This document shows, piece by piece, positions 2,783 to 37,243 of a stretch of 41,971 nt of DNA. Origin of the DNA: a bacterium (lineage in GTDB: Bacteria; CALINM01). The notes beneath the pieces were generated by a model. That model had not been told where the DNA came from and did no database searches. It worked only from the letters and a program-made list of their open reading frames with translations. Position 1 is the stretch's first letter, and every line of letters starts with the position of its first letter. The DNA is taken from the NCBI GenBank assembly GCA_041640455.1, contig JBEQAF010000003.1, forward strand, positions 1-41,971, read 5' to 3'. A program made the position numbers and the translations under genes.

Positions 2783-3175
2783 TTATTTACCCTTCTTTTC
2801 CTTATAGTCTTTAATAGCTGCTTCTATAGCTTGCTGGGCTAAAACGGAGCAGTGGATCTTTGCAGGTGGCAGTCCACCTAAAGCCTCAGCAACTGTCTCA
2901 TTGGTAACCTTCAATGCCTCCTCTATGGTCTTACCTTTAATCATCTCAGTAACCATACTGCTTGATGCGATTGCAGCGCCACATCCAAAGGTCATAAACT
3001 TTGCATCTTCTATAATCCCCTGATCGTTTATTTTGAGATAAAGTCTCATAACATCTCCGCAGGAAGGATTTCCCACCTCTCCGATGCCGCTGGCATTTTC
3101 AATCTCACCCATATTTTTGGGATTTAAAAAATGCTCCATAACTTTCTGACTATAGGGTCCCTGACCATCTGCCAT
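2783..3175 (-). CDS. iscU: Fe-S cluster assembly scaffold, IscU/NifU N-terminal type
   Basis: 130 aa with the three scaffold cysteines in canonical contexts (PSCGDVM, FGCGAAIASSS, KIHCSVLA). It lies 17 nt downstream of the nifS-like gene. Confidence 0.85.
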   Translation of the reverse strand: MADGQGPYSQKVMEHFLNPKNMGEIENASGIGEVGNPSCGDVMRLYLKINDQGIIEDAKFMTFGCGAAIASSSMVTEMIKGKTIEEALKVTNETVAEALGGLPPAKIHCSVLAQQAIEAAIKDYKEKKGK

Positions 3176-3192
3176 AAAAACCTCCTTTTTTA

Positions 3193-4428
3193 TTATTTAT
3201 CTGCTTTTGTAAGCTTTGGTGTATGTCCTTTTATCCTGTCCAGATAAAAAGGCGACATCTGCCATAGTCTTTCAACGATCTTAGGCATAATCTCAAGTAT
3301 GTAATCAATATTCTCTTCTGTATTTTTCATCCCGAGAGAGAATGTGAGCGAACCAGTACATATATCTGATGGTACCCCAATTGCCTTGAGCACAGGTGAG
3401 GCAATAAGCTCATCTTCATCTTTTGCTCTCAGATTTGAACTACAGGCAGAACCACTACTTGCCATAACGCCCAGATGATTTAGCATTAAAAGAAGGGACT
3501 CTCCCTCTGCATACTCTACCCAGAAACTATAATGGTTGGGCAGTCTTTCTGTCCTGTGACCGGTCAGATGAACAAAATCTATATTCTTTTCGATACCGTC
3601 CATCAGCCTGTCTCTCAGCTTTGAAAGATAGCTTATTCGCTGAGACATTTCCTTTTTCGCAATCTCTGCGGCTTTTGCAAGACCGATAATAGCAGGCACA
3701 TTCTCTGTGCCAGATCTAACCCCTCCTTCCTGAAATCCGCCTTCAAGAATAGGTTTTAATAACACTCCTTTTCTAACATAAAGTGCGCCTACCCCTTTGG
3801 GTCCGTAAAGGCTCGTAGCAGAGATGGTTAGTAGATCTACTCCCAGATCCCTAACGTTAAAATTTATTAGCCCCGCAGCAGCACAGGCATCGCAGTGAAA
3901 GATTATATTTTCATTAAAATCCTTTGCTATCTTTACAAGACTTTTTATATTCTGAATGGTTCCGATCTCATTATTTGCCAGCTGAATGGAAATGATAGCT
4001 GTATCTGCTGAAAGAGCTTTTCTAAAAGCATCTTCAATAATAAAGCCGTTGTTATCCACAGGCACATAGGAAACTTTCACACCAAAATCTCTATGAAGGG
4101 TGGAAAGAGGCGATGTTATACTGAAATGCTCAATACTGGAGGTTATAATATGTTTACAGTTTTTAATGTTCTGAAAAAAAACACCTTTAAGTGCCAGATT
4201 GTTGGACTCAGTAGCTCCTGAGGTAAACACAATCTCAAAACTCTCACATCCAAGAAACTCTGCAACGGTTTTCCTGCTTTCATCGAGAGCTGTTAAAGCC
4301 TCGTTACCCTTTGAGATAATGTGTGAAGAGGGATTGCCATATTTCTCCATGAAGTATGGTTTCATAGCCTCAAATACCCGCTCATCAACAGGACAGGCAT
4401 TGGCATAATCTACAAAAATCTGTTTCAT
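3193..4428 (-). CDS. IscS/NifS-family cysteine desulfurase homolog lacking the canonical PLP-binding lysine
   Basis: 411 aa with class V aminotransferase-fold motifs (TSSIEH, HCDA, GPKGVGALYV, RSGTEN) and the active-site loop SSGSACSS. The position equivalent to E. coli IscS GHK206 reads SATS (codons at 3811-3822). Confidence 0.8.
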   Translation of the reverse strand: MKQIFVDYANACPVDERVFEAMKPYFMEKYGNPSSHIISKGNEALTALDESRKTVAEFLGCESFEIVFTSGATESNNLALKGVFFQNIKNCKHIITSSIEHFSITSPLSTLHRDFGVKVSYVPVDNNGFIIEDAFRKALSADTAIISIQLANNEIGTIQNIKSLVKIAKDFNENIIFHCDACAAAGLINFNVRDLGVDLLTISATSLYGPKGVGALYVRKGVLLKPILEGGFQEGGVRSGTENVPAIIGLAKAAEIAKKEMSQRISYLSKLRDRLMDGIEKNIDFVHLTGHRTERLPNHYSFWVEYAEGESLLLMLNHLGVMASSGSACSSNLRAKDEDELIASPVLKAIGVPSDICTGSLTFSLGMKNTEENIDYILEIMPKIVERLWQMSPFYLDRIKGHTPKLTKADK

Positions 4429-12120: not shown

Positions 12121-14009
12121 AAAATACCTTTTATGTTACAACACCTATCTATTACGTAAATGATGTGCCACACATAGGGCATGCCTATACCACCATTGCC
12201 TGTGATGTGATGGCAAGGTACTATAGATTATCTGGCTATGATGTGTTTTTCTTAACCGGTACTGATGAGCATGGTCAAAAGATTGAAAAAACTGCAAAAT
12301 CTCTCAATATATCTCCAAAAGAGCTGGCAGACCGAGTGGTAGTTAATTTTCAGAATCTCTGGAAAAAGCTAAATATAAACAATACAGATTTTATCAGAAC
12401 CACCGAGGAAAGACACTATAGGACAGTTTCTTACCTTTTCAAAAAGATTGAAGAAAAGGGAGACATATATCTTGGAGAGTATGAAGACTGGTACTGTGTT
12501 CCCTGTGAGACTTTTCTTACCGAAAGCCAGCTTGTGGATGGCAAATGTCCCGAATGTAAAAGACCAGTAGACAAACTAAAAGAGGAAAGCTACTTTTTCA
12601 GAATGTCCAGATACACAGAGCCTCTTTTAAAATACATTGAAGAGAACCCGGATTTTATTTATCCCCCCTCAAGAAGAAATGAGATCATAAGCTTTGTTAA
12701 ACAGGGGTTAAGAGATCTTAGTATATCTCGAACATCTACCAGATGGGGGATTCCCGTGCCTGAAAATGATAGGCATGTCATCTATGTCTGGTTTGATGCC
12801 CTTACCAATTATATAACTGCCATAGGCTATCCCGATAATCCTGCCCTTTTTGAAAAATACTGGCCTGCTGTGCATTTTATCGGTAAAGACATATTAAAGT
12901 TTCATGCTGTTTACTGGCCCTGTTTCTTGCTCTCTGCAGGGCTTCCGCTTCCCAAAAGGGTGGTAGCTCACGGCTGGTGGACTGTTGAAGGTCAGAAGAT
13001 GAGCAAATCTCTTGGAAATGCCATAGATCCTTTTGCGCTAACCGACAAATATGGAGTAGATGCCTTCAGATATTTTCTATTAAGAGAGGTGCCCTTCGGG
13101 CTTGATGGAGATTTTTCTGACGAGGCTATGACCAAAAGGATTAATTCTGACCTCGCAAATGATCTTGGGAATCTTGTAAAAAGAAGCATATCTATGGTGG
13201 AAAAGTTTCTTGAATCCAGATTTGAGCCCCCTCAAAACTCTGACATAGACGAAAATGTGCTCAAGGTGGTTCTTAACAGCACTCAGAAATATGACGAGGC
13301 GATGAAAGAGTGTTCTTTTAGTAGAGCCCTTGAAGCCCTCTGGGAGCTCATTGGTTTTCTCAATAAATACATAGTAGAAAAAGAGCCATGGAGCCTGAAC
13401 AAAAAAGGTGAAAAAAATGAGCTTAAAAAGGTGCTTTCAAACCTGCTTGAGGGCTTAAGAGTTGTAGCCATGTATCTCTACCCCTTTATGCCCCAGAAGT
13501 CAAATCAGATTTTCAATGCCTTAGGGATTAAAGAGGACATCCAGTCTTTTATAAACAAAATCCCAGAATCCCTGCTATTTGGAAAAGTAAGCGGCTCATT
13601 TAAAGTTGAAAGTATGGGCGACCTATTTCCAAGAATTGAAAAAGAAGAGGCAAAAGCCATCGAAATTTCTGAGAAAAAAGAAGAGGCTAATATATCTATC
13701 GATGATTTTGCCAAAATAGAGCTTATGATAGGAAAAGTTAAATCGGCAGAACGGGTTCCCAAATCTGATAAACTGATAAAACTATCTGTTTTTGACGGCA
13801 AAAAGGACAGGACAATTGTAGCAGGAATCGGCAAGTTTTACGCTCCTGAGGAGCTTGTGGGGAAAAATATTACCTTCGTAGCCAATCTAAAACCAACCAA
13901 GCTTATGGGTATTTTATCGGAAGGGATGATTCTTGCTGCTTCAGATGAAAAGGGGCTATCTCTTATTGTTCCCGAAAAAGACGTTGATTCTGGTTCAAAG
14001 GTTAAATAA
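12117..14009 (+). CDS. metG: Methionine--tRNA ligase with C-terminal tRNA-binding (Trbp111/EMAP-like) domain
   Basis: 630 aa starting at GTG. It has HIGH (PHIGHAYT), KMSKS, a zinc knuckle (CVPCE...CPECK), and a C-terminal OB domain (KIELMIGKVKSAERVPKSDKLIKL). Confidence 0.9.
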   Translation: MKNTFYVTTPIYYVNDVPHIGHAYTTIACDVMARYYRLSGYDVFFLTGTDEHGQKIEKTAKSLNISPKELADRVVVNFQNLWKKLNINNTDFIRTTEERHYRTVSYLFKKIEEKGDIYLGEYEDWYCVPCETFLTESQLVDGKCPECKRPVDKLKEESYFFRMSRYTEPLLKYIEENPDFIYPPSRRNEIISFVKQGLRDLSISRTSTRWGIPVPENDRHVIYVWFDALTNYITAIGYPDNPALFEKYWPAVHFIGKDILKFHAVYWPCFLLSAGLPLPKRVVAHGWWTVEGQKMSKSLGNAIDPFALTDKYGVDAFRYFLLREVPFGLDGDFSDEAMTKRINSDLANDLGNLVKRSISMVEKFLESRFEPPQNSDIDENVLKVVLNSTQKYDEAMKECSFSRALEALWELIGFLNKYIVEKEPWSLNKKGEKNELKKVLSNLLEGLRVVAMYLYPFMPQKSNQIFNALGIKEDIQSFINKIPESLLFGKVSGSFKVESMGDLFPRIEKEEAKAIEISEKKEEANISIDDFAKIELMIGKVKSAERVPKSDKLIKLSVFDGKKDRTIVAGIGKFYAPEELVGKNITFVANLKPTKLMGILSEGMILAASDEKGLSLIVPEKDVDSGSKVK

Positions 14010-15379
14010 TGGCAGAGTTTGTAGATGTTCATACTCATCTTGAGATGCCCGAATTTGAAAAGGATCTGGAAGAAACAATAAAAAGGGCAAAAGATAGCTC
14101 TGTTACCTTTATCTGCACAGTAGGCACAGAGCCCCGATACTGGGATCGGGCAAAGGAAATCGCAACTAATCACAAAAATATATACTTTTCCATCGGCTTA
14201 CATCCCCACGAAGCAACTCAGTATGACAAAAATATTGAAAAAAGCCTTCTTAACTATCTATCGGAAGATAAATGCCTGATGCTGGGAGAGATTGGTCTTG
14301 ACTTCTTTAAAAACTACTCCCCAAAAGAAAAACAGATAGCGGTCTTTCAAAAACAGCTTGATATTGCTGAAGAGCTTAACAAACCTGTGATGATTCATAT
14401 AAGAGAAGCCCACAAAGAGGCTAAAGAGATACTGAAAAAAAGAGATCTAAGCGGCATTATCCACTGCTTCTCTGGAACTCTTGAAGATGCAAAGTTTTAC
14501 ATAGACTTAGGCTATTTTATCTCCATACCCGGCACAGTAACTTTTAAAAAGGCAGCCAATCTGGCAGAGGTGGTAAAAACTATCCCCCTTGACTATATTC
14601 TTACAGAGACAGATGCACCCTTTCTTGCTCCAGAGCCCTACAGGGGTAAAAGAAATGAGCCCGCTTTCGTAGTCCAGGTTACAAAAAAGATTTCAGAGCT
14701 CAAAAACCTTCCATTGGAAGATGTGGCAAGAACAATAAAGATAAATACAGAAAAAATATTTGGCTTAAATTCTGAAAAAAAAGCAAAGCTTGTATATAAA
14801 ATACGAAACTCACTTTACATTAATCTTACAAACAGATGCTCCAACCGCTGTGTGTTTTGTGGCAAAAACAGAGATTTTTTTGTAAAAGGACACTATCTAA
14901 AGCTCGATTATGAGCCATCTTATGAGGATATTCTTAAGGAGACTCCAGATGACCTAAGTAGCTATGATGAGGTGGTATTCTGCGGTTATGGAGAGCCCAC
15001 TCTCAGGCTTGATATTATAAAAAGTCTTTCAGGGGAGTTTAGAAAAAGAGGCGCAAAAAAGATAAGGCTAAATACCGATGGTTTAGCAAGTCTTAGAGAA
15101 AAAAGAAATATGCCCTTTGAGCTCAAAGATTTTATAGATTCGGTATCCATAAGTTTAAATGCTGCCGACGAGGAGACTTACAACAGGCTTTGCAAGCCAG
15201 GCTTTCCTCAGGCATTTAGTGAGCTAATAAAGTTTATTGAAGAGTCTAAAAAGTACATAAAAGAGGTGGTTGTCTCAGCGGTTGCTGTTCCTGAGCTTGA
15301 CGTGGAAAGAGTAAAAGACTTTGCCGAAAACACTCTAAAAGTAAGATTTCGACTGCGACCCTACAACGATCTTGGATAA
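14009..15379 (+). CDS. TatD-family metal-dependent hydrolase fused to a C-terminal radical SAM domain
   Basis: Residues 1-255 carry the TatD motifs (VDVHTHL, GEIGLD, MIHIREA, IIHCFSG, TETDAPF). Residues ~265-456 carry CSNRCVFC (CxxxCxxC) plus GYGEPTL. Confidence 0.8.
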   Translation: MAEFVDVHTHLEMPEFEKDLEETIKRAKDSSVTFICTVGTEPRYWDRAKEIATNHKNIYFSIGLHPHEATQYDKNIEKSLLNYLSEDKCLMLGEIGLDFFKNYSPKEKQIAVFQKQLDIAEELNKPVMIHIREAHKEAKEILKKRDLSGIIHCFSGTLEDAKFYIDLGYFISIPGTVTFKKAANLAEVVKTIPLDYILTETDAPFLAPEPYRGKRNEPAFVVQVTKKISELKNLPLEDVARTIKINTEKIFGLNSEKKAKLVYKIRNSLYINLTNRCSNRCVFCGKNRDFFVKGHYLKLDYEPSYEDILKETPDDLSSYDEVVFCGYGEPTLRLDIIKSLSGEFRKRGAKKIRLNTDGLASLREKRNMPFELKDFIDSVSISLNAADEETYNRLCKPGFPQAFSELIKFIEESKKYIKEVVVSAVAVPELDVERVKDFAENTLKVRFRLRPYNDLG

Positions 15380-15408
15380 AAAAAAAGGGGTGCTTGGCAC
15401 CCCTTTTT
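15378..15408. terminator. Bidirectional intrinsic terminator between convergent tatD-rSAM and the barrel gene
   Basis: A-run, then the GGGGTGC-TTG-GCACCCC hairpin (15387-15403), then TTTTT. Confidence 0.8.
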
Positions 15409-15429: not shown

Positions 15430-17913
15430 TTAGAAGTTGTAGGTTATAGAAGCAGATACGGTATGGAGCTTTCCATCCTGATCGAAGTAAACATAGGGTT
15501 TTTTATCAGCCACCATTGAGAAGAGATAACCTAAACCAAGTTTCAAGTTCTCCCTAATCTTATATCCAAGAGCTAAACTAAGGTCAAAGATTTCATACTC
15601 AAGATCCGAAAGCTCTGGAAGAATATTCATATAGGCAAAGTTGTACAAAAGTACCTGTTCTGCCGCATTTGTAGTCTGGTTATTATCTTTTCCATCATAA
15701 AGGTATCCTAATTTTTTATCATCCCATGAGGTGTCAGAAAAATTAGGTCCTGTAATATAGCCTTTGACTTTGTTGTAGGTAAGATTTCCTGAAAAGCTGG
15801 TTTTGCTATTAACCTCTATGTTGCTTCCAAGATAAATGGTGTCTGCGCTGTTTTTGTATTCAATTTTGTTCTGTTTAGAGCCAACCTGGCTTGAAGTAAT
15901 TATGTTTGCTCAACCGTCGTAGTAGGATGCGCAGATTATACTATCATACTTCTCACCCAGATAATTATATCCAGCATATAAACTAATCTTGTCATTTAAC
16001 ATATATCCAAGATTAATACCGGTATTCAAAATATTTCTTTTCCACTCATAGGTTTTAAGATCATCGTTTTTTGCAGTTTTATACTTTCCAGATAGATCTA
16101 CCGAAAGCCTATCGGAGGGCAAGTAATTAATATCTAAAGCAATCTGATGCTCTCCTGTAGGCTCAATGGACATACTCGCCTTTCTTCTGTCATAAACAAC
16201 TGGACCGTAGAGTGCATCCCATCTGTACATACCTACAGGCACATTATAATAGGCATGAGGTTCAGTACCATTTGTGTCATCGTAGCTGCTTAAATCTCCA
16301 GGTCTCTGGTAGAATTCTGCACATCCTGCCTTAAAATATATAAAGGGGTCATCAATATTAATATACCTGTAGGAAAGCCTTGTTTTAAGATTTTTTGCTA
16401 CCTTATATTTTGCACCCAGTTTCAATGTGTATTTTGTAGTCTCTTCGGTAATCTCAAAGTCATGGGCGTTATCTCTTTCTATCTTATCCATGTAGAGCCC
16501 ACCGAGGAGGGTTAATGCATCTGAAACCTTATAATCCACATCTAAGCCCAGGCCATATTCATCCCGGTTATACAACGAGTGCCTTGTGAGATCAAAGGTA
16601 AGATTTGAACCAGGAAAAGGCTCTATACCTACTGCGGCAAAGTTAGTTGATGTATTATAAGAATTACCCAGCAAGCCATTAAGTAGAGTCTGGGCTCCAC
16701 CAGGTGCTGCTGGTGGATTTGTCCTTTCTACCACGTCAACAAATACATCATCATTTTCTACGGTTCTGTAATATCCAGAGAGAGAAAGCCTAAGGTCTTT
16801 ATTTAGCTTTGTATTATATCTTAAGTCTATGCTTTTAGTATCCAGTTCAAGAGATTTGTCGTATTTGCCCCTCAAGATATCATAGCTGCCACTTGTTTCG
16901 TGATTAATGGCATTAGACACTACCCCCTTGACAACAAGATTTGAATTTTTAGAAAAATCATATCTAAGTTTTAAGATATTTGTGTTCTTCTCTGAATCAG
17001 GGGCATTATTGGCTGGGAGATAACCATCAGTGTTATCAAACATTGCTCTATTTCTGAATGGATTTGAGCTGTCTAATGGACTACCTGTCCTGTCATATTT
17101 AAACTCCTGATAGGCTTTATTGGTAAAACTGGTGCTCTTTAATCTGTAGTTCACAGTTAGCTTTCCAAGCTTTGCATCTATAAAAGGCGCAACATCAGTG
17201 GTGTTTTCATCAATTCTTTTGTCATATCCTGTTACATGGCAGGAGCTGCAATGTGCTGATACTGTTGAATGGTCGAACCCTTTTCTTGTAAGAACCTTAG
17301 CTTCAACACCAAAGGTTACTCCTTCAAGGGAAGGCAGATTTATTTTTAGACTATTACTCCATTCTGAAACAGACTTCCCGAAGTTACTTCTTTGACTTAA
17401 ATCGGTATTGTAAACAGTAGCAGAACCTATCTGACCAAGAGATGTAGTCCCTGTGGATGGTACAATTGGAAATCCTGGAACTGCAACAGGATCAGCATTT
17501 CCATCTGGTACAAGTATTGTCGTATTAGCATTATCTCTAAAATCAACACCAGCATGCGCTTCTAAATTCCTTAGATCTTGTTTAGGAGTTATGTGGAAAT
17601 ATTTCAGGTAGTTACTCTGAAACCTGAAGATCCGGTTACCATCAAATTTTAAGTAATATTTCTGATCTTCAGGATGAACGTATCTGCCAAAAAAATCAAT
17701 TCTTGCATCCTTATCATAACTGCCTTTAATTTCGATAAGAGGCAAAAGATCAGACTTATACTGCTTATTATATTTAGCAACAAGAGAAGCATCATCTTTT
17801 ATATCATTTACAGATGCACCTATTGTAACGCTGCCATTAAAGCTTTTATCTTCAGCATATAGTAATGAGCTTAAAAGTATAAGAGTTAAAGCTACTGTAA
17901 ATAGTTTTTTCAT
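15430..17913 (-). CDS. MtrB/PioB-like outer-membrane beta-barrel partner of the decaheme cytochrome, interrupted by one in-frame TGA at 15910-15912
   Basis: Signal peptide MKKLFTVALTLILLSSLLYA-ED, followed by long alternating beta-strand-like sequence. It starts 9 nt after the decaheme gene with an AGGGGGA SD. The 667-codon track ORF stops at a TGA, and I verified that the same frame stays open for 160 more codons, ending in ...SASITYNF (aromatic OMP C-terminus). The 72-aa track ORF (15430-15648) is simply the tail of this frame. Confidence 0.6.
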
Positions 17914-17922
17914 AGCATCCCC

Positions 17923-18900
17923 CTATCTGGTTAAGTTTTTGCCCTGGCTTGTGGTGCCCTGAGATGGCAGGTCAGAACCATGGACTGCTGGATGGCATTG
18001 GGTACATTTTGTAAGAAAGGCTTTCTGAAAAGCCCTCTGCTGGGGATCACCTTTGATTGTAATAGGCTGATTAGTATAGGGATCCTGAACACCCAGGTAA
18101 GTTAAATCATACTTAGATGATATTCTCAAGGCATGGAAATGGGCTTCATGACACTGCAGGCATACAAAAGGCTCATTCTGTTTTAGTAGATTATTTGCAA
18201 TACTGCCATGGGCATCATGACAGTTCATGCAGTCTTCTACAACAGGGGCATGCTCAAACACAAATGGTCCCTGATACTTTCTGTGACAGGATAGACATAG
18301 CTCGTTTTTGTGTTCATCGGTGTTTAACATACCTGAATTTGCATTGTGAACATTATGACAGCTTGAACAGCTCATCTTATCTTCCTTAAGGGGATGATGG
18401 GATGGATAAGAGAGCTTTGCCTGCACATCTCTGTGGCAGGAGGAACAGAGCGCGGTTTCTTTGTTTTTAAGAAGTTTTTTATACTTTGATTTGTGAGCCG
18501 AATGACAGTCCGTACATACCATACCTTCTCTGTGATGGACTGTTCCTTCAAAAGACATGGTCTTCATGCTCTGATGGCAGCTCATACAGACTGAAACAAT
18601 ATCAATGTCTTTTTCTTTAAAGCTAATTATTTTACCTCCTCCTTCGCTATGCAAAGATCCAGGTCCATGACAGCTTTCACACCCAACCTTAGTTCCTACC
18701 TCAAACTCAGCAATCCTCAAATGCACGTTCTTATTGTCTTTAAAATACTCTTCATGACAGCCTTTGCAAGCTTGGGCACCAACAAAGCTCGAACCGCTTA
18801 AGTATTCGGCAGGCGAAAACATCTCTGCCCTCTTTTTAAGGGCGCTCGAGCAAGCAGTGATGAGGATTAGGAAACCCAACAAACAAATTAACTTTTGCAT
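17923..18900 (-). CDS. Decaheme c-type cytochrome, MtrA/DmsE/PioA-like
   Basis: Ten CxxCH motifs counted (CKGCH, CESCH, CMSCH, CTDCH, CSSCH, CSSCH, CLSCH, CMNCH, CLQCH, CTQCH). The preferred start is the ATG at 18900, 4 nt after AAAGGGGGG; the track's TTG start at 18927 is unlikely. The signal peptide has a lipobox-like LITAC. Confidence 0.85.
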   Translation of the reverse strand: MQKLICLLGFLILITACSSALKKRAEMFSPAEYLSGSSFVGAQACKGCHEEYFKDNKNVHLRIAEFEVGTKVGCESCHGPGSLHSEGGGKIISFKEKDIDIVSVCMSCHQSMKTMSFEGTVHHREGMVCTDCHSAHKSKYKKLLKNKETALCSSCHRDVQAKLSYPSHHPLKEDKMSCSSCHNVHNANSGMLNTDEHKNELCLSCHRKYQGPFVFEHAPVVEDCMNCHDAHGSIANNLLKQNEPFVCLQCHEAHFHALRISSKYDLTYLGVQDPYTNQPITIKGDPQQRAFQKAFLTKCTQCHPAVHGSDLPSQGTTSQGKNLTR

Positions 18901-18940
18901 AGACCCCCCTTTATTAGAAGAACACAATTAATTCAATTTA

Positions 18941-18971
18941 ATTATAATAATAAAAACTACTCCCATGTCAA
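18941..18971 (-). promoter_or_regulatory. Putative sigma-70 promoter of the cytochrome/barrel operon
   Basis: On the minus strand, a perfect TTGACA (18971-18966) is followed by TATTAT at N16 or TATAAT at N19 (18946-18941), about 40 nt upstream of the ATG at 18900. Confidence 0.45.
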
Positions 18972-19258: not shown

Positions 19259-19307
19259 GCTATGATGTTGTATTTTATATCACAATTTGATATATTTTAT
19301 AACAAAT

Positions 19308-20549
19308 ATGGAATCTGGCTATAAACCAAGATGGCTTGCTGATAAACTGCGAAGGTCCATTGAGTTTTCACCAGTAATAGTTCTTTCCGGTGCAAGGCAG
19401 ACAGGCAAAAGCACCCTGCTCGCAAACGAGCCCCCTTTTAGAGATTGGCATTATATATCTTTTGATGACCTTGATAGCCTTTCTCTTGCATTAAAAAGAC
19501 CTGAAGAGATACTAAATATCTCTAAAAACATCATCATAGATGAAGTTCAAAGAGCTCCAGAGCTTTTACATGCTGTAAAAATAGCCGTTGATAAGGATAG
19601 ATCCCGCAGGATAATTTTGTCAGGCTCAGCAAGGCTTATGCTAATGAATAGGGTTTCAGAAAGCCTTTCGGGTCGAGCCATCTATTACGACTTGATGCCA
19701 TTTAGCTATGGAGAGCTATTAGAGATAAAGTACAATAACTGGCTTGACCTATTTATGAAAACCGGGGAACTGCCATCGCTTAACATAAAGGATTACATTG
19801 GGGATAAAGCATTTGTAGATGATCTATACCATAGTCTTTTTAGAGGATTTCTGCCACCTGTTGCATTTTTGAACAAAGAGGAGCAGATTGCATCATGGTG
19901 GAAAGGTTATGTAAAGACCTATCTTGAGCGAGACTTGAGGAGCATTGCCGAGATAGCCTATCTACCAGATTTTAGAAAAATGATGGAACTAATTGCATTA
20001 AGAAATGCTAATATTTTAAAGCAGAGTGAGATTGCAAGAGATGCTGGACTTTCACAGTCAACCGCAGGAAGATATATCAGTATCCTTGAAGAGACCAGCC
20101 TTATTTCCAAAGTCAGACCCTATGCAAAGAATATATCAAAGAGATTGATTAAATCACCTAAAATAATAGTTACTGACTCTGGGCTCGCTTCATCTCTTGC
20201 CGGTTTTTTATCTACCGAATCAGTTCCAAAGCAGTTTATGGGAGCTATTTTTGAATCCTATGTGTTTTTGAATTTATCGGTTAGAGCTTCTCTTATGGAT
20301 GGCGAGATCATGTATTTAAGAACTCAGGGTGGGCTTGAAAAGGAAGTTGATTTTATACTTGAACGAGGTAATCAGATAATCGGGATAGAGGTGAAGCTTA
20401 GCGATACTGTTTCAATGAAAGATATAAAAAATCTGTTGCTTCTCAAAGACTTTTCAGACAGATTTGCATGTGGGCTAATTGTTTATTCTGGATCTGAAAT
20501 AAAAAAACTTGCGCAAAGAATTTATGCAGTACCTTGGTTTGTAATCTAA
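19308..20549 (+). CDS. AAA+ ATPase with C-terminal PD-(D/E)xK nuclease-like domain (AAA_14 / DUF4143, COG1373-type)
   Basis: Walker A is SGARQTGKST and Walker B-like is IIIDEVQ. The C-terminal EVDFIL...IGIEVK reads as a D...ExK nuclease motif. The ATG at 19308 is preferred over the track's TTG at 19287. Confidence 0.7.
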   Translation: MESGYKPRWLADKLRRSIEFSPVIVLSGARQTGKSTLLANEPPFRDWHYISFDDLDSLSLALKRPEEILNISKNIIIDEVQRAPELLHAVKIAVDKDRSRRIILSGSARLMLMNRVSESLSGRAIYYDLMPFSYGELLEIKYNNWLDLFMKTGELPSLNIKDYIGDKAFVDDLYHSLFRGFLPPVAFLNKEEQIASWWKGYVKTYLERDLRSIAEIAYLPDFRKMMELIALRNANILKQSEIARDAGLSQSTAGRYISILEETSLISKVRPYAKNISKRLIKSPKIIVTDSGLASSLAGFLSTESVPKQFMGAIFESYVFLNLSVRASLMDGEIMYLRTQGGLEKEVDFILERGNQIIGIEVKLSDTVSMKDIKNLLLLKDFSDRFACGLIVYSGSEIKKLAQRIYAVPWFVI

Positions 20550-20751: not shown

Positions 20752-21099
<348 letters not shown>

Positions 21100-22446
21100 T
21101 TATTTCTCAGCATGGACAAAGTCTGGATAGGCAATATTTCCATGCTCCATAATGTCCAGACCTTCCATCTCTTCTTCTTTTGATACCCTTAGTCCAACTG
21201 TCTTTTTTATGATAAAAAACATTATCAAACAGAGACCGAAAGACCAGACAAAGGCTGATACCACACCCAGTGCCTGAACATATAAAAGTTGAAAGGTAAA
21301 CCCGCTCTCATTGAAAATTGCGGCTGAAAGAGTTCCGAAGGCACCGCATACACCATGAACAGATACAGCGCCAACAGGATCATCAACTTTGAGAACTTTC
21401 TCAATAAAAAGCACCGAAATAACAACCAGAATACCTGCAATAAGTCCTATTATTATTGAGCTCATTGTAGATACATTATTACAGGGTGCAGTTATGGCTA
21501 CCAGCCCAGCAAGCACACCATTCAGTGTCATGGTTGCTTCTGGCTTTTTAAAAAGTATCCATGCGGTAATCATTGAAGAGAGCCCACCTGCTGCAGCTGC
21601 CATATTTGTATTAACTGCAATTTTAGCCGCATCTCCGCCTGCAACAGTTGTACTACCCGGATTAAAACCAAACCATCCAAAAAAGAGTATAAATACACCA
21701 AGAGCTGCAAGAGTTATACTATGACCTGGTATAGCTTTAGGCTTTCCATCTGTACCATATTTGCCCAGCCTGGGTCCCAGCATCAAAGCACCTGCCAATG
21801 CTGCCCATCCGCCTATTGAATGAACAACTGTAGATCCAGCAAAGTCAATAAAACCCATTTTTTCCAACCAGCCCTTACCATGATACAGCCCGCCCCAGCA
21901 CCATGAACCAAAGACAGGATATATAAACGCACTGATCACTGCGCTATATATCAGATAGGCAATAAATTTAGTCCTTTCCGCCATTGCTCCCGAAACTATT
22001 GTAGAGGCTGTTGCAGCAAAAACTACCTGAAACATCCAGAAGGCAAATACCCATAGATCTTTCTCTTTAGCAAAATCGGATATCATAAACCCGTCTGTAC
22101 CATAAAAACCGGTAGGATTTGTTCCGAACATAAGCCCAAAGCCTATGAAGAAAAAGGCTAAAGAGCCAAGTACATAGTCCATCAGGTTTTTCATCATAAT
22201 ATTTGCAGCATTTTTTGCACGGGTAAGACCAGTTTCAACCATTGCAAATCCTGCCTGCATAAAAAAAACGAGGAAAGCAGCTATCAATGTCCACACATAG
22301 TTTGCATTTTTCTGAACGGCATCTACTTTTCCAACCACATCTTGAATGGTCGGAACAGCCTGCTGAACCACTTCTTCTGCAAAAACTGCACTGGTCATAG
22401 ACATTATTAATACTAAAAGACTTAAATACTTAAACTTGTTTTTCAT
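21100..22446 (-). CDS. amtB: Ammonium transporter
   Basis: 448 aa polytopic Amt family protein (FAGSTVVHSIGGWAALAGALMLGPR, VHGVCGAFGTL). It lies immediately upstream of glnB. Confidence 0.95.
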   Translation of the reverse strand: MKNKFKYLSLLVLIMSMTSAVFAEEVVQQAVPTIQDVVGKVDAVQKNANYVWTLIAAFLVFFMQAGFAMVETGLTRAKNAANIMMKNLMDYVLGSLAFFFIGFGLMFGTNPTGFYGTDGFMISDFAKEKDLWVFAFWMFQVVFAATASTIVSGAMAERTKFIAYLIYSAVISAFIYPVFGSWCWGGLYHGKGWLEKMGFIDFAGSTVVHSIGGWAALAGALMLGPRLGKYGTDGKPKAIPGHSITLAALGVFILFFGWFGFNPGSTTVAGGDAAKIAVNTNMAAAAGGLSSMITAWILFKKPEATMTLNGVLAGLVAITAPCNNVSTMSSIIIGLIAGILVVISVLFIEKVLKVDDPVGAVSVHGVCGAFGTLSAAIFNESGFTFQLLYVQALGVVSAFVWSFGLCLIMFFIIKKTVGLRVSKEEEMEGLDIMEHGNIAYPDFVHAEK

Positions 22447-22462
22447 AAAATCCTCCTTTATC

Positions 22463-23536
22463 TTACCATCTATACATAAGCCCTAAGGCTGCAGTAATCT
22501 GATAGTCCTTGCTTCCACCGTTAAATACCTTTTCGTCAGACATATCATATCTGATCTCCGGTCTTACAATGAGACCTCCTTTCATGGTGATCTCTGGAGT
22601 CAGAGTTAACTCTGTTAATGTCTGCTTAGTACCTGTTCTTGCTGCATCCTTGTCATCAAACATCTCAGCTCTTAAGGAAAGGCTGTAGCTATCAGAAAAC
22701 TTATATTTCAATATACCTGCTATACCATACCACTTTGCATCATCATTAGGATTTAAGACCGAGGCATTTTCTTCCATACCATAGTCACCATTAAGATATA
22801 TTGTCATCCTGTCTGTGACGTTTACTGTTACAACCGCATCAAGCAGGCTTCTCTTATTCAATCCTTCTCTACCAGTAATACCGTTCAGAAGCACTGAGAA
22901 CCTGTCAGAAGGTGTTAGGGACACAGAGATACCTATACTTTTATCCTTATTATCATCTTTGAAGTTATCCCAGCCGTTTGCTAAATAAAAAGACAATGAG
23001 AACTTATCTGAAAATGATTTTGAAAGTTTAAGTCCTGTGTGAGTAAAGGGGATGGCATAGTAAAATAGAAAGCTTCTTGAATAATTAGGGTTATCGATAG
23101 CTTCAATTACCTCACCGCCTATAAATGTAGCATATTTACCTACCATGGCTTTCATTCCATCGCCAAAGTTATACTCCATGTAAGCTTCTGTCAGATCAAC
23201 CTCATCTGCCATTGTTCCTGCTGAATGAATTTGTGTAGCTGTCTCACCAAGACTGAGTTTCAGCTTAAAACCAAGACTGTCTTTTTCAGCCGCTTCCTTT
23301 GAAAAAACTACTTGCGCGAGGTCAAGTGTAAACTGGTCTGAATTGGCGTCAAAGGGTCTAAGATCTGTGCCTTTGCCATCATTAGAAAAATTGGCTGTAT
23401 AACCGCCCTGAAGATTTAGTGATAGTCCAAGAGCTTTTTTGATCTCATCGGCTGAAAGTGCATGAGATTTTTTAACCCCAAAGACAACTAAGATACAAAC
23501 CGCCATTAAAACTGTAAAAAAATTTTTTCTGTGCAT
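22463..23536 (-). CDS. Putative outer-membrane porin, first gene of the amtB-glnB operon
   Basis: 357 aa with a signal peptide, alternating beta-strand pattern and a C-terminal ...GLMYRW. It has an AAGGAGG SD. No family name could be assigned by eye. Confidence 0.55.
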   Translation of the reverse strand: MHRKNFFTVLMAVCILVVFGVKKSHALSADEIKKALGLSLNLQGGYTANFSNDGKGTDLRPFDANSDQFTLDLAQVVFSKEAAEKDSLGFKLKLSLGETATQIHSAGTMADEVDLTEAYMEYNFGDGMKAMVGKYATFIGGEVIEAIDNPNYSRSFLFYYAIPFTHTGLKLSKSFSDKFSLSFYLANGWDNFKDDNKDKSIGISVSLTPSDRFSVLLNGITGREGLNKRSLLDAVVTVNVTDRMTIYLNGDYGMEENASVLNPNDDAKWYGIAGILKYKFSDSYSLSLRAEMFDDKDAARTGTKQTLTELTLTPEITMKGGLIVRPEIRYDMSDEKVFNGGSKDYQITAALGLMYRW

Positions 23537-23571
23537 AAATGCCTCCTTTTTTATTGGTTTGGCAAATTATG

Positions 23572-23587
23572 AGCAGTTTTAATGCCA
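23572..23587 (-). promoter_or_regulatory. Sigma-54 (-24/-12) promoter for porin-amtB-glnB
   Basis: The minus strand reads TGGCATTAAAACTGCT against the consensus TGGCAC-N5-TTGCW. GG-N10-GC spacing is exact, and the GC lies 35 nt before the porin ATG. Confidence 0.65.
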
Positions 23588-23740
23588 CAAATTAAATCTT
23601 TGATTTTAAACGATATTTTTAGATTGAAGAGGATGGGATTAAACTACAATTTTGTATTGTTTTTCTTTATGATAGGAAGTATTCTATTAATTTCAATTAT
23701 TTATAAAAAAATACAAAATTGTATTTACTACATTTTTGTA

Positions 23741-25258
23741 TCAGATGTTAATGTTTAGCTTTTCTATCTTATAGTTTATCTGTCTTTCCGTAAGTCCAAG
23801 AAGCTGAGCTGCTTTTTTTCTGTTTCCTCTGGTACTCTCAAGAGCCTTTGTAATATGTTCTCTTTCAAGCTCTTTTATAAGTTTCGGTAGCCCCATGTTA
23901 TAGGATAGCTCCATTGCTACAGACTGTTTTGGCTTTCTAATATTTATTGGTATATCATTTTCATCAATAAGATCCTTTTTTGACATTAAAACAAGTCTTT
24001 CAATGGTATTTTCAAGCTCCCTCACATTTCCTGGCCAGTTATAATCCACCAGCCGTTCCATTGCCTTTTCTGATATTCTGGCTTTTCTTTTATGCTCACT
24101 GTTAAATCTTTCCAGAAAATGCTCTATGAGAATGGGGATATCTTCCTTCCTCTCCCTTAGCGGCGGAACCTGTATGGGGATTACATTCAGTCGGAAATAT
24201 AGGTCTTCTCTAAATTTGTCTTCCCTTATCAGCTCTGTAAGGTTCCTATTGGTTGCGGCAATAACCCTTACATCCACTTTAATCTTATTGCTTCCACCAA
24301 CCCTTTCAAACTCCATCTCCTGAAGAACCCTTAAAAGCTTTGGCTGAAGATGTAGAGGCAGGTCACCTATCTCATCAAGAAATATTGTACCGCCATCAGC
24401 AAGCTCAAACTTGCCCTTTCTTGTATTTATAGCACCGGTAAATGCACCTTTCTCGTGACCAAAAAGCTCGGATTCTATAAGATTTTCGGGTATGGCAGAG
24501 CAGTTCAGGCTGATGAAAGGTTTATCCTTTCTATTACTCAAAAAATGTATAGACCTGGCTAAAAGCTCCTTTCCAGTACCGCTTTCGCCCAGTATAAGCA
24601 CCGAAGCTTTTGTTTTTGCAACCATATGAATTGTTTCAAATATGATCTGCATCTTTTCCGAATTAGATACTACATTTTCGAGCCGGTAGCGCTCTTTCAT
24701 CTCCGAGATAAGCTGATCTCTTTGTTCAATCAGAGAGGTAATTTCTGATTCGTAATAGCTGTTGAGCTGGATATTAATGGCAAAAAGCGTTGCAACGGTT
24801 TTAAGAAGTTTAATGTCATCTTCAAATTTAGTGTTTCTATCAAAATTTTTATCTACACTTAAGACTCCCAGAACATCACTCTTAATCTTTATGGGCACAC
24901 AGATAAAGGATATTTTTGCCTTTTCTTCAGCAGGTCTTGATCTGGTTTTATTGAGAAATACCTCATCATCGGTAACGTTTGGAATTACAATGGGTGTGCC
25001 GTTTTTTGCAACCTTACCAATTACACCTTCACCAAGTTTATATCTACCTCTTTTGACCTCGTCTCTCGAAAGACCAAATGATGAGACTATCTCCACCATG
25101 TCACCTTTTTTAAGCGCAACAACACCTCTTTTCATCTCGAAAAAATTATTTAATATTACGAGAGCGGAGCGAAGACTTTTTCTTAGATCAGGATTGGAAG
25201 CAAGAACCTTGCTTATCTCATAGATGGCAGATAGCTCCAGTTTAAGTCTTTCTGACAT
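23741..25258 (-). CDS. Sigma-54-dependent transcriptional activator, GAF-AAA+-HTH (NifA/NtrC-like EBP)
   Basis: 505 aa with an N-terminal GAF-like domain, Walker A GESGTGKE, the sigma-54 contact loop GAFTGA, and a C-terminal Fis-type HTH ([16 protein letters not shown]). Confidence 0.9.
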
Positions 25259-28277: not shown

Positions 28278-28781
28278 CTAACTGATATAGGATATAACTA
28301 TTGTGGCGTTAAGTAAGGATGGATTTTCAAAGGAGGAGTTAATACTAAAGCTTGTTATTTTTATAAAAAAATCCAGATTTTTAATCCGATAGATAAAGTT
28401 TATCAGACTGTTAATATCTATGCCTTCAAGTCTGAGCTCGTAGTCTTCACGATTGTAGCTACCTTCTTTTTTTTTGGAAATAAAGTTTATTTTTTTAAGA
28501 TTTTTCTTAGCAGAAATAAGCTCAGCCACTTTTTCTATCTCTGTATTTATATTTCTATTTTTGCCCGATTCTATCCGTCTTTTACTGCTGGTGATAAACT
28601 CTGACATAGTGTTTATGGAATCTCTGTTTGTTATAATTTCCTGGAGAATTAATCTTGAGTTATCAATATTTTTCCTTAGCTCCCTGTTTTTTGACACCAT
28701 ATAGATATCTGCAATAAGAAGAACAATAGCAGCTGTGAGAAAAATGTAGAAACTTTTTTTATTATCTTTCATCGATATCAA
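28278..28781 (-). CDS. gspM: Type II secretion system protein M
   Basis: 167 aa bitopic protein with one N-terminal TM, positioned after gspL. Confidence 0.55.
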   Translation of the reverse strand: MISMKDNKKSFYIFLTAAIVLLIADIYMVSKNRELRKNIDNSRLILQEIITNRDSINTMSEFITSSKRRIESGKNRNINTEIEKVAELISAKKNLKKINFISKKKEGSYNREDYELRLEGIDINSLINFIYRIKNLDFFIKITSFSINSSFENPSLLNATIVISYIS

Positions 28782-29730
28782 CCTCTAAGACGAAGCTTAC
28801 CGATCCGTCGGGAAGATTTTTTGTCTCAGTTGTTCTTGCATCTTTTACAAGCTTCTTAATATTAGCTCTGAACTGTTCAATAAGATTTGAATCTTTGCTC
28901 TCTCCTTTAAGCAATATACGTGAAGATTCACCACTAATCTCTTTTACCTTCATCCCTTTTGGCATACTTTCGGAAAATATTTTCATAATGTCAAGAATCT
29001 CTATTCCATTCAAAGACCTGTAGCTGGTTTTTAGATCCATAAGTTTTGACCGAATATAGACTGCTGGATCTCTTTCTATCTTCTGCCCTTGAGAGAGAAA
29101 CATTGCCGATGACAGAAGCTCGGATCTTAGCTTTTCATCCTTCTTTTTTAAACCAAAAAAACTAATAAGCTCTCCTGCTAAAACAATTAAAAGTAATAGA
29201 CAGATATAAAAGCCAGACCTTTTAAAAAGCGAGATTTTTTCCAGCTGTTTACCCATCCCGAGAAACTCTTTAGGCATAAAATTAAGCTTGAAGCTGTTAA
29301 AACTTTTCTCGTCAATAACATCTTCGAGACTCTCGTCATAGAAAGGGGCTATTAACCTCATTACCCCCACCTCTTTTCCGAGGGCTTTTAAATAGCTTTC
29401 CAGTTTTGATTTTTCAATGGCAAATACCAGCGCATAAAGCTCCTTTTCTTTTTTTTCAAGAGGGATAAGATCCATTACTAACTCTTTAGATTCTACCAGA
29501 AATATATCTTCCATCTCAAAAGGAAGAATCTCCATTAATTTTTCACCCTCAAGATTGGGTAACTGTACCTTTCTAACATAAAAATCCTCTGCTGGCAGAT
29601 ATAACTCTATTCCCTTTTTCAGATCAATCTTCTGGATGAGCTCATTAAAGTTATTGTAATGAGCTGATTCTCCTGTCTCCCCGTTCAGGACTCTGAATCC
29701 ATCTTTAAGTTTAAATATGCTGAATGCCAT
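28762..29730 (-). CDS. gspL: Type II secretion system protein L
   Basis: 322 aa with a cytoplasmic domain, a central TM (GFYICLLLLIVLAGELISFFGL) and a periplasmic domain. It lies between gspK and gspM. Confidence 0.55.
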   Translation of the reverse strand: MAFSIFKLKDGFRVLNGETGESAHYNNFNELIQKIDLKKGIELYLPAEDFYVRKVQLPNLEGEKLMEILPFEMEDIFLVESKELVMDLIPLEKKEKELYALVFAIEKSKLESYLKALGKEVGVMRLIAPFYDESLEDVIDEKSFNSFKLNFMPKEFLGMGKQLEKISLFKRSGFYICLLLLIVLAGELISFFGLKKKDEKLRSELLSSAMFLSQGQKIERDPAVYIRSKLMDLKTSYRSLNGIEILDIMKIFSESMPKGMKVKEISGESSRILLKGESKDSNLIEQFRANIKKLVKDARTTETKNLPDGSVSFVLEVDIDER

Positions 29731-29744
29731 TTATCGTTCCTGTA

Positions 29745-30605
29745 TTAATATTCTTTCCAGAAGTTTGTTTTTATTTTCCCACTGTCAATATCAAAGCTAA
29801 CCTCAACTACCTCTTTAAATTCATCTTTGCTTGCTACAATATTTAGAAAAAAGCTGGTGCTCTTAACTGTAATTATGTCAGATATGTTAACACCTATCAC
29901 ATTCATCTGCGGGAATGCAACCAGCTCCCCTCGGGATTTAAAGGGCTTATCAGCTCTTCTTTCTATTATCCTGTCTGCCAGCTCAGCGCTTATATCTTTA
30001 TGCAGTGCCATTATCAGCTCTTTTTCTGCCGTGTTAATATTTATTTGCCCGTTACCATATATGGTCACATAGGGCTTAAGCTTTTCTAAATCTTCAGACT
30101 TAAAGATATACTTTAATTCAGATAGCGAAAAAAGAAAATAATTTTTTGCGTTTATCTCTCCATCTCCTATTCTTGAGGTTCTATCAAAATCAATATAATC
30201 AACCAGCCTGTCCGCATATGCCTCGTCAAGACCTAAATTTTTGAGAAGTCTTCTCATTATCTCATAGCTTCTCAGATTTATTAAGCCGTTCTGATAGATC
30301 AGACTGTTTAGATTGAGCTTGCTGTTGTTATCCTCCACAAGGGCTGTAACGGTAATATCTTCTACTCTGTCAACAAGTGTTTCAGATTTTTTATCGGTAT
30401 AATCGAGCCTTCTTAAAAACTGCTCTATCTGCTGAGAGGAAAAGGTATAACCAGACTTTAAAACAGAGGACATCTTTTCTGAAAGTTTATAGTTCTCAGT
30501 CATATTTACAAAAAGATAAACCCTTCTCACAAAACTAAACAGGACGCTCACCGTAATGGTAAATACTACCAGCACTATAATTAACACATTTCCTTTATTA
30601 TTCAT
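29745..30605 (-). CDS. gspK: Type II secretion minor pseudopilin K
   Basis: 286 aa with an N-terminal hydrophobic segment GNVLIIVLVV and the GspK-typical ININTAEKELIMAL motif. Confidence 0.7.
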   Translation of the reverse strand: MNNKGNVLIIVLVVFTITVSVLFSFVRRVYLFVNMTENYKLSEKMSSVLKSGYTFSSQQIEQFLRRLDYTDKKSETLVDRVEDITVTALVEDNNSKLNLNSLIYQNGLINLRSYEIMRRLLKNLGLDEAYADRLVDYIDFDRTSRIGDGEINAKNYFLFSLSELKYIFKSEDLEKLKPYVTIYGNGQININTAEKELIMALHKDISAELADRIIERRADKPFKSRGELVAFPQMNVIGVNISDIITVKSTSFFLNIVASKDEFKEVVEVSFDIDSGKIKTNFWKEY

Positions 30606-31186
30606 CTTGCCACCATCAGCTTACATATCTGAGATAGCTCTTCACTGTCTCTTTCGCCTTTCTTAAGATATATGGATATTTTTACAAATTCAGGGATTTT
30701 CTGGGAGTTTTCACTGTTATAAACCTTTTTTTCCAGATTGTCCTCATAAGATACTACCCTGAAACCTGCTATGTCTCTCAAAATTATTATCCTGTGTGCC
30801 CGGTCCTCTTTCAGCGGGTCGTAGATCTTCTTATAAAGGTTCAGGGTACCTTCACTTTCTTCCACAAAGTAACTGACAACTTTAGTGCCTTCTTTAAAAA
30901 AACTGGTAAAGGTAATCTTGCTTGCAGGTTTTCCAAAAAAGTCATTCTCCTCCACTTTTATACCTGAATATGGAAGCTTCCTGTCAAAATAAATGCTCTC
31001 CACCTCTTTTCTCATAACGCTGAGCAGATTAAAGACCTTCTCCCTGTTTTTCATTAACTCATATACATCAAGGCTACCTCTTTTAAGGGCAAAAAAGACT
31101 GTATAGGCAGCAGAGATTACAACCATTGATATGGCAACTGCGATTAGTATCTCTATGAGTGTATAGGCTTTATTGTTTTTTAACAT
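30602..31186 (-). CDS. gspJ: Type II secretion minor pseudopilin J
   Basis: Prepilin-type N-terminus KAYTLIEILIAV, 194 aa, in the gspJ position. Confidence 0.65.
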   Translation of the reverse strand: MLKNNKAYTLIEILIAVAISMVVISAAYTVFFALKRGSLDVYELMKNREKVFNLLSVMRKEVESIYFDRKLPYSGIKVEENDFFGKPASKITFTSFFKEGTKVVSYFVEESEGTLNLYKKIYDPLKEDRAHRIIILRDIAGFRVVSYEDNLEKKVYNSENSQKIPEFVKISIYLKKGERDSEELSQICKLMVAR

Positions 31187-31553
31187 AGCTAAATAGGGTT
31201 ACCTCATTTTTTCCATAACTGGCTCTTGATATAACCTTTTTAATACCAAGCATAAACTCTTCTTCTGTAACTACATAATTTATGTTTTCTTTTACACCTG
31301 TCATGGCAGAAAGCTTTCCCTTCTCGTAAAGATATAGATTTTCTTTTGCCACCAGAATAAGTTTTATTTCATCCTTTTTATCCTCAAAAATCCCCAGATG
31401 GTAAGAAAATGATGAAAGCACTGCTACAAGAGTGGTTGCCACAATAAAAAGGGCAACCATTACTTCAATTAAGGTAAAAGCTCTTTCACTCCTATTAATC
31501 CCTCTCGCTTTTAGACCAAAAAGTTTAATCATAAAACTCTTTTCTACCTTCAA
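31170..31553 (-). CDS. gspI: Type II secretion minor pseudopilin I
   Basis: Prepilin-type N-terminus RAFTLIEVMVALFIV. The ATG at 31532 (MIKLFG...) is a plausible alternative start that overlaps gspH by 8 nt. Confidence 0.65.
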   Translation of the reverse strand: MKVEKSFMIKLFGLKARGINRSERAFTLIEVMVALFIVATTLVAVLSSFSYHLGIFEDKKDEIKLILVAKENLYLYEKGKLSAMTGVKENINYVVTEEEFMLGIKKVISRASYGKNEVTLFSYVKKQ

Positions 31554-31977
31554 ATATTTCTATCTCACCGGTCACATTGTTTAGAAATAGTGTCTGCTCC
31601 TTCCCGCCTTTTTTCTGATAAAAAACAAGAAAATCTTCCGAAGGGAACGGTGGAAAGCTGATTATAACCTGACCATCTCTTATAAGCCCCGAATTTGGGA
31701 TCAGCACCTCCCAGAGCTCATTATCTTTCATGGATAATTTTTTTTCTGCCTTTGATGATCTAAATGAGAAAAATCTTTCCTTAAAGTCAATCTTTAGAAC
31801 CCCCTCTTTTTTTGAGGTGATGGCATCTTCTCTGAGATCCTTTAGATAGGAAGAGAGTGATACCTCTTCTTTAATACCTATCTCTTTAAATAATGCAGGG
31901 GCTGTAAAAAAAGAAACTGTTGTGATGATAAAAATAACTACCAGCAGTTCAATTAAGGTAAAACCCTTTTTTTTCAA
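31525..31977 (-). CDS. gspH: Type II secretion minor pseudopilin H
   Basis: MKKKGFTLIELLVVIFII prepilin leader, 150 aa, in the gspH position. Confidence 0.65.
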   Translation of the reverse strand: MKKKGFTLIELLVVIFIITTVSFFTAPALFKEIGIKEEVSLSSYLKDLREDAITSKKEGVLKIDFKERFFSFRSSKAEKKLSMKDNELWEVLIPNSGLIRDGQVIISFPPFPSEDFLVFYQKKGGKEQTLFLNNVTGEIEIFEGRKEFYD

Positions 31978-31981
31978 AGCT

Positions 31982-32413
31982 TTAGTTAATCTCCCAGCTA
32001 TTTATATCGGCGTTAATCCCTTCTCCACCTGGTTTTCCGTCTGCGCCGTATGAGGACAGATCAAAATCTCCATGAGCACCTGGTGAAATATAGATATAAT
32101 CATTCCCCCAGGGATCTTTGGGCAGGTTTTTTTTCTCCAGATAACCCCCTTCCCTGTATTTTTCCGGAACTGGAGCTATGGAAGGTTTTCTAACAAGCGC
32201 CTCAAGCCCCTGCTCTGTCGTGGGATACGTGCCGTTATCAAGCTTATAAAGTTTTAATGCGGTGCTAAGATTTACAATCTGAATCTTTGCCTCCGCAATC
32301 CTGGCATCATCGGTTCTACCTATAACTTTGGGACCCACAAGTGCAGCAAGCAGCGCCAGAATAAAAACCACCACAAGAATCTCAATTAATGTAAAACCTC
32401 TTTTATCTCTCAT
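31982..32413 (-). CDS. gspG: Type II secretion major pseudopilin G
   Basis: 143 aa beginning [30 protein letters not shown], with a GspG-typical body ([26 protein letters not shown]). Confidence 0.9.
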
Positions 32414-32433
32414 ATTACCTCCATAATCTTTAG

Positions 32434-33597: not shown

Positions 33598-33606
33598 AAT
33601 TAATTT

Positions 33607-35118: not shown

Positions 35119-35162
35119 AGGCTATATGCCCTGCCCTGATGAGCTAATAAATATTTTTTTAA

Positions 35163-37229: not shown

Positions 37230-37243
37230 AGCTCCTCCTGCTG

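Follow-up and report, generated by a model that had tools for sequence, protein, structure and literature searches.

A conserved in-frame UGA, very probably read as selenocysteine, in an outer-membrane barrel gene of the OmcL/GSU2204 family

The gene pair GSU2203/GSU2204, also named OmcK/OmcL, is induced on hematite and magnetite (PMC4070692), and OmcKL has been proposed as a conduit in sulfate-reducing partners of methane-oxidising archaea (PMC10553843). Two reviews list the GSU2204 family as a selenoprotein and credit a 2008 metagenome study (PMC13188914; PMC9312934). The citation trail of both reviews leads to PMC2398784, in whose main text a term search did not find the family named. The work on methane-oxidising partnerships discusses OmcKL without any mention of selenocysteine (PMC10553843), and the electron-transfer literature on this conduit appears to have overlooked the residue. 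Here, a gene of this family is described from contig JBEQAF010000003.1, whose whole length of 41,971 bp is called the window below. The gene carries a single in-frame TGA at 15912-15910, which is very probably (about 90%) a selenocysteine (Sec) codon. It is a divergent member, from a low-GC branch, of a selenoprotein family that is already curated, and the family itself is not new.

The barrel gene and the elements that bear on its TGA are as follows:

15430-17913, minus strand: probable OmcL/GSU2204-like barrel selenoprotein gene, with 667 codons, the UGA (Sec668), 159 further codons and a TAA.
15910-15912, minus strand: UGA probably read as Sec, residue 668, on the basis of the TGA kept across loci and of Cys at this column in relatives.
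15433-15909, minus strand: 159 tail codons, which would be translated only upon Sec insertion; they encode the five strands that complete the barrel and the terminal ...ITYNF.
15931-15933, minus strand: Cys661, seven residues N-terminal of Sec, conserved in the close subfamily.
15879-15891, minus strand: putative apical hairpin of a bacterial selenocysteine insertion sequence (bSECIS), AGCCA-GGU-UGGCU, which starts 18 nt after the UGA and has a 5-bp stem and a GGU loop 23 nt after the UGA.
15382-15408, minus strand: terminator-like hairpin 3' of the TAA, a 12-bp stem followed by a T run.

The open reading frame (ORF) from 17913 to 15910 on the minus strand encodes 667 residues and stops at the TGA in the context ...CASYYDG-TGA-ANIITSSQ. 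Past this codon, 159 sense codons lead to the TAA at 15432-15430 and to the end ...SASITYNF, which gives 827 codons overall. An earlier note on this DNA had claimed the same stop, open frame and C-terminus, as well as a hairpin at 15879-15891, 18 nt past the TGA, and a Cys seven residues upstream; all of these were confirmed when the frame was read again. The note had also taken TGA for a genuine stop elsewhere in the window, naming holB, PSP1 and rluB, and this is borne out by 12 other genes that terminate at TGA (including rluB, holB and PSP1/RicT), each followed by no more than 20 open codons. Because of these 12 genes, a reassignment of TGA throughout the genome (codes 4 or 25) was rejected. 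The window has a GC content of 37.8%, and its genes use TAA 21 times, TGA 13 times and TAG 6 times as a stop. None of the other genes that end at TGA is followed by a long open stretch in the same frame, and the window therefore yielded no second selenoprotein candidate.

The 667-residue part matches the NCBIfam model NF041027, "GSU2204 family CXXCH-containing (seleno)protein" (GSU2204_Se_pt_1), at 439.3 bits against a cutoff of 350. Residues 8-667 align with positions 2-580 of the 580 in the profile, whose end coincides with the TGA. Scores with the MtrB_PioB models were 49.4 bits for Pfam PF11854 (cutoff 23) and 21.6 bits for TIGR03509 (cutoff 240). The barrel gene is preceded by the gene of a partner cytochrome, and the two form a unit with one promoter-like site:

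17923-18927, minus strand (ORF 18927-17926): decaheme c-type cytochrome gene of the GSU2203/OmcK family (MtrA/DmsE-like), directly upstream of the barrel gene.
18944-18971, minus strand: promoter-like site 5' of the two-gene unit, a consensus match at 11 of 12 positions.

The partner matches NF041028 at 389.8 bits (cutoff 325) and the DmsE/MtrA-type decaheme model TIGR03508 at 222 bits (cutoff 192), and the same gene is found directly 5' of the barrel gene in every locus that reaches upstream of the barrel. Four features thus place the barrel in the GSU2204 family: the score above the NF041027 cutoff, a single CXXCH in the N-terminal third, a UGA at the Sec column followed by a conserved tail, and the adjoining GSU2203/OmcK gene. 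The CXXCH is invariant in 52 of 52 aligned family members. No MtrC-like surface cytochrome gene adjoins the pair, and none was found in the window.

The TGA is conserved well beyond this contig. A word-index protein search retrieved only eight clusters, that of the window and seven others with 43-65% identity; six of the seven stop at ...CASYYDG, the same column as the window ORF. The seventh, P0002, has W at the Sec column and runs on to ...TYNF. The DNA of P0002 (L003, 4128-4130) shows TGA at this place, and the W is a gene-calling artefact, seemingly due to a genetic code that assigns TGA to Trp. A scan of a genome collection found only two related loci. At the DNA level, the close set comprised 13 sequences, those of the window and of 12 further distinct loci (38-79% identity) taken from independent assemblies, and all 12 carry TGA at the Sec codon. 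In 11 of them, 154-159 open codons follow before a TAA and the conserved end ...TYNF or ...TYSF. In L017 (about 3000-3324), the TGA and the exact hairpin are kept, in-frame stops occur on both sides, Cys(-7) is changed to Tyr and the contig end is reached; decay of this copy or poor assembly of the locus may account for these features. Four distant members (L018-L021) also have TGA at the same column, which brings the TGA-containing loci to 17 including the window.

A profile search over 1.84 billion cluster representatives extended this comparison to the wider family. It returned 270 matches (190 at E < 1e-10), the best 150 of which were analysed, and 119 of these 150 representatives end at a ...x[YFMWLV]xG column that is the same as that of the window TGA. 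One CXXCH is present in 115 of the 119, and 51 of the 119 have Cys at -7.

The codons past the TGA are under purifying selection. In comparisons with unsaturated synonymous divergence, the ratio of nonsynonymous to synonymous substitution rates (dN/dS) is 0.07-0.09 after the TGA and 0.085-0.146 in the 159 codons before it. This low ratio, together with the conserved open frame, indicates that the tail is translated in frame, which in turn removes the readings of the locus as a recent pseudogene or of the TGA as a sequencing or assembly error in a sense codon. A single sequence would have left room for either, and L017, with its stops on both sides of the TGA, does look degraded. However, the same TGA recurs in 16 other independent assemblies and at the end of the 119 representatives described above, and no terminator-like site was found on the barrel strand between the TGA and the TAA, the sole one following the TAA. 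A pseudogene or an error is thus practically negligible as an explanation.

Another way to account for a conserved tail is a split barrel, in which a 667-residue product would be joined by a separately initiated C-terminal piece. Gene callers do report an orphan ORF of 66-133 aa, with no Pfam match, past the barrel gene in all related loci examined. Examples of these ORFs, which correspond to the C-terminal part of the probable selenoprotein, are as follows:

L004, 12263-12463: orphan ORF past the barrel gene.
L006, 10469-10834: orphan ORF past the barrel gene.
L009, 12053-12367: orphan ORF past the barrel gene.
L018, 5936-6337: orphan ORF past the barrel gene.

Both parts, however, share one frame with no stop between them in 17 of 17 loci. 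The residues right after the TGA (ANIITSSQVGS) are conserved and have no start codon ahead of them, and the relatives with Cys or Gly at the Sec column are single continuous ORFs. These observations make a split barrel most improbable. They point to a systematic split annotation of a selenoprotein gene, whose correct form would be one 827-codon selenoprotein in place of the present 667-aa 'truncated porin' and small orphan ORF.

The identity of the residue at the TGA column in relatives is informative, as the earlier note had anticipated in proposing an alignment of orthologues. Most have TGA, and the full-length representatives have Cys in four cases at the protein level (P0060, P0085, P0076 and P0118), Gly in three (P0022, P0109 and P0141) and Thr in one (P0133). 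Alternation of Sec and Cys at one column is a classical sign of a true selenoprotein. For P0022, the DNA (L022, 1816-4119) confirms that the Gly is real, with GGT at the Sec column, and no hairpin was found at the matching place in this locus; a Gly codon without a hairpin indicates that Sec was lost, or never gained, in some branches. Two further cysteines, Cys531 (16321-16323) and Cys661, are invariant in the close subfamily, apart from the change of Cys661 in L017, and only about half of the wider family has them. The four representatives with Cys in place of Sec are without both Cys531 and Cys661.

Further evidence for Sec comes from the hairpin that follows the UGA. The bSECIS consensus comprises a loop of 3-9 nt, an upper stem of 4-16 bp, a G in the first two loop positions and a distance of 16-37 nt from UGA to loop (PMC13188914). 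The window hairpin fits this consensus with its GGU loop (3 nt), 5-bp stem and 23-nt spacing. Furthermore, a G-first 3-nt loop on a stem of at least 4 bp, with the loop 20-23 nt after the UGA, is present in 17 of 17 TGA-containing loci. Taken alone, the window hairpin is not significant against shuffled sequences (z = 0.40; 133 of 200 shuffles fold as well), and its significance thus derives from the comparison with other loci only, not from single-sequence folding. A search of Rfam with the sequence gave nothing at gathering thresholds, and at E up to 10 only one chance-level match.

Among the 13 distinct close sequences, a run of 14 nt, AGCCAGGTTGGCTC, is invariant. The hairpin codons AGC CAG GTT GGC show zero synonymous changes in these sequences, and among codon columns elsewhere that encode an invariant degenerate amino acid, only 1 of 19 is fixed. 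The lack of synonymous change in the hairpin codons therefore argues for selection on the RNA and not on the protein. RNAalifold, applied to the same 13 sequences, recovered only the invariant 5-bp stem with no covariation, because the hairpin never varies in the close set.

Covariation was instead seen in the distant members L018-L021, in which the hairpin lies 20-23 nt past the TGA and has a stem of 5-8 bp and a G-first loop (GGU, GUU or GGA). In L018, an identical SSQVGS peptide is encoded by different codons that rebuild the stem. An ungapped, loop-anchored alignment of the distant members showed compensatory changes in 7 of 8 pairs. In this alignment, 83% of cells are paired and the covariation score is 0.468, values that 0 of 500 shuffles reach and that far exceed those of slid controls, in a comparison of four distant sequences hand-anchored on their hairpins, which favours the structure.

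Besides this anchoring, several results weigh against decoding as Sec. The search for sel genes covered the window and the retrieved related loci: NCBIfam scans of 36 window proteins found no SelA, SelB or SelD, no selA, selB or selD gene was found in the window or in the retrieved related loci, and no tRNA-Sec gene was found in the window or in 22 loci. The window hairpin, at -5.2 kcal/mol (-5.3 for the 60-nt region), misses the bSECIS limit of -7.5 (PMC13188914); it thus agrees with the bSECIS model in loop, stem and spacing, but not in energy. The relatives, at -7.7 to -23.7 kcal/mol, pass the same limit. Some folds of individual sequences hinted at an additional, longer stem below the hairpin (columns 7-15 with 43-51), but this stem did no better than shuffles and was dropped. 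In the searched literature, no protein-level evidence of Sec was found for any member of the GSU2204 family.

These points bear mainly on read-through without Sec, whereby a near-cognate or suppressor tRNA would insert Trp, Cys or Gly, and the hairpin would merely slow the ribosome or block release factor 2. The lack of sel genes in the window and the retrieved loci, the presence of Gly or Cys at the Sec column in some relatives and the weakness of the window hairpin would all suit such a mechanism. On the other hand, features specific to bSECIS elements are present in 17 of 17 TGA loci, and the retention of a costly UGA in over 100 clusters is characteristic of Sec, with no such case known from simple read-through. 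The family is also modelled as a selenoprotein by NCBI curators. Read-through without Sec is thus considered quite improbable, and insertion of Sec at the UGA is preferred. With regard to the two options weighed in the earlier note, that of selenocysteine or read-through is supported by the TGA in 17 loci, downstream selection, hairpin covariation and the alternation of Sec and Cys, and that of a fresh pseudogene is refuted by the conserved TGA and the low downstream dN/dS. The hairpin, which the note had called loosely SECIS-like, shows nucleotide-level selection in the close loci and covariation in the distant members.

The fold of the protein was studied by building an AlphaFold2 model of the homologue P0002, which is full length and 57-61% identical to the window protein, from a 53-row alignment. 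The model is confident (predicted local distance difference test score 84.7, predicted template modelling score 0.81) and has 26 long strands. Its top match in the Protein Data Bank (PDB) was MtrB of the MtrCAB complex (6r2q_B; E 6.2e-24), with a template modelling score of 0.73 normalised to MtrB; the next matches were TonB-dependent receptors at E around 1e-11. Five of the 26 strands (629-650, 655-671, 720-736, 739-752 and 763-775) and the aromatic C-terminus lie past the Sec position, and a product ending at the TGA would therefore be without them, as had been supposed for the 667-residue product from its sequence.

The model also suggests a topology. Every connection after even-numbered strands is 2-6 residues long, and the connections after odd-numbered strands are mostly long. 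MtrB has tight turns in the periplasm and long loops at the surface, with the loop that joins strands 1 and 2 outside the cell (PMC7198977). By analogy, the CXXCH (loop 7/8), Sec (loop 21/22) and Cys531 (loop 17/18) of the modelled barrel would be on the cell-surface side. Direct ligation of the barrel's own heme by Sec is unlikely, because about half of the barrel separates strands 7/8 from strands 21/22.

Two further features of the protein bear on its export and maturation:

17854-17913, minus strand: likely signal peptide, MKKLFTVALTLILLSSLLYA, recognised by eye from the sequence.
17236-17250, minus strand: CSSCH heme c attachment motif (C222, C225 and H226), the motif that is invariant in the family.

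From these elements, the following pathway can be proposed. SelB and Sec-tRNA(Sec) would be recruited by the AGCCA-GGU-UGGCU hairpin, the UGA would be decoded as Sec668, and the ribosome would go on for 159 codons. The resulting 827-residue precursor would be exported through its signal peptide, and one c-type heme would be attached at C222-x-x-C225-H226 in the periplasm. The β-barrel assembly machinery (BAM) would then insert the barrel through its aromatic C-terminus. In the outer membrane, the 26-strand MtrB-like barrel would sheathe the decaheme cytochrome encoded upstream, and the pair would form a two-gene electron conduit with no adjoining MtrC-type partner. As for a chemical role, it is a tentative and on balance unlikely suggestion that Sec, in a surface loop at the outer mouth of the conduit, is catalytic or contacts a metal or heme, for example through a selenenylsulfide with Cys661 or Cys531. 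Under this suggestion, the barrel would be an outer-membrane selenoenzyme acting on extracellular substrates and not a passive sheath.

The genes around the pair vary between branches. A V-type ATPase operon lies directly 5' of the cytochrome-barrel pair in one subfamily branch (L004, 2115-8892; L005, L006 and L007), and the window instead has an AAA ATPase with a DUF4143 domain at 19287-20549 as the neighbourhood. In one lineage (L006, 11386-13218; L007, 6620-8452), genes for an additional c-type cytochrome and for a protein with a rhodanese domain lie 3' of the barrel gene; in Geobacter, rhodanese proteins are likewise found with the ExtHIJKL selenoprotein cluster (PMC5877670). On the other side of the barrel gene in the window, a 456-aa ORF (14009-15379, plus strand) encodes a TatD-family nuclease domain fused to a 'TatD-associated radical SAM' domain (TIGR04038). 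This fusion gene converges on the barrel gene, and the bidirectional terminator at 15382-15408 is common to both.

Other clusters are present elsewhere in the window. A nitrogen-regulation block (20752-25258, minus strand) contains genes for a P-II protein, an ammonium transporter, an unassigned 357-aa ORF and a sigma-54 activator of the NifA type, whose score exceeds the NifA cutoff. Apart from this block, a NifS/NifU-type Fe-S assembly pair is found at 2783-4428 (minus strand). A type II secretion cluster (28278-38095, minus strand) comprises GspK, GspF, GspE, GspD, GspC and probable pseudopilin genes. In Shewanella, type II secretion exports surface cytochromes.

The OmcK/OmcL conduit family has been linked to the reduction of minerals and to electron transfer between species (PMC4070692; PMC10553843), and the locus extends it by a divergent branch of low GC content. 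The strong retention of Sec and of the SECIS hairpin makes the role of Sec in an outer-membrane barrel a clear experimental question.

Compared with known systems, the window hairpin resembles the SECIS element of the Escherichia coli fdhF type in being a hairpin within the coding sequence right after the UGA, with a loop that opens with G followed by G or U, and with a distance from UGA to loop that falls within 16-37 nt (PMC13188914). However, its stem is much shorter and weaker, it has no supported lower stem, and there is no sequence similarity between the two. ExtKL of Geobacter (GSU2937-2936) is also a predicted selenoprotein in an outer-membrane electron-transfer cluster whose annotation is split at the UGA (PMC5877670; PMC13188914). 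Unlike the window barrel, ExtKL is a soluble or peripheral pentaheme cytochrome, and it has no sequence relationship to the window gene, to which NF040886 gave no match.

With regard to the fold, MtrB of Shewanella MtrCAB (PDB 6R2Q, chain B) and the P0002 model share a barrel of 26 antiparallel strands, in which the turns on one side are short and the loops on the opposite side are long (PMC7198977). MtrB is likewise paired with a decaheme cytochrome gene of the MtrA/DmsE type, although the sequence identity is 13%. To our knowledge, MtrB has no heme motif and no Sec. The closest relatives are the members of NF041027 in Geobacter sulfurreducens and other Desulfobacterota. The window branch is set apart by its low GC content and by the extra cysteines C531 and C661, invariant here and found in about half of the family, and its hairpin stem of 5 bp compares with up to 8 bp in distant members. 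Like the window gene, the NF041027 members have a single CXXCH, a Sec column ahead of the last ~150 residues and a GSU2203/OmcK-type decaheme gene upstream.

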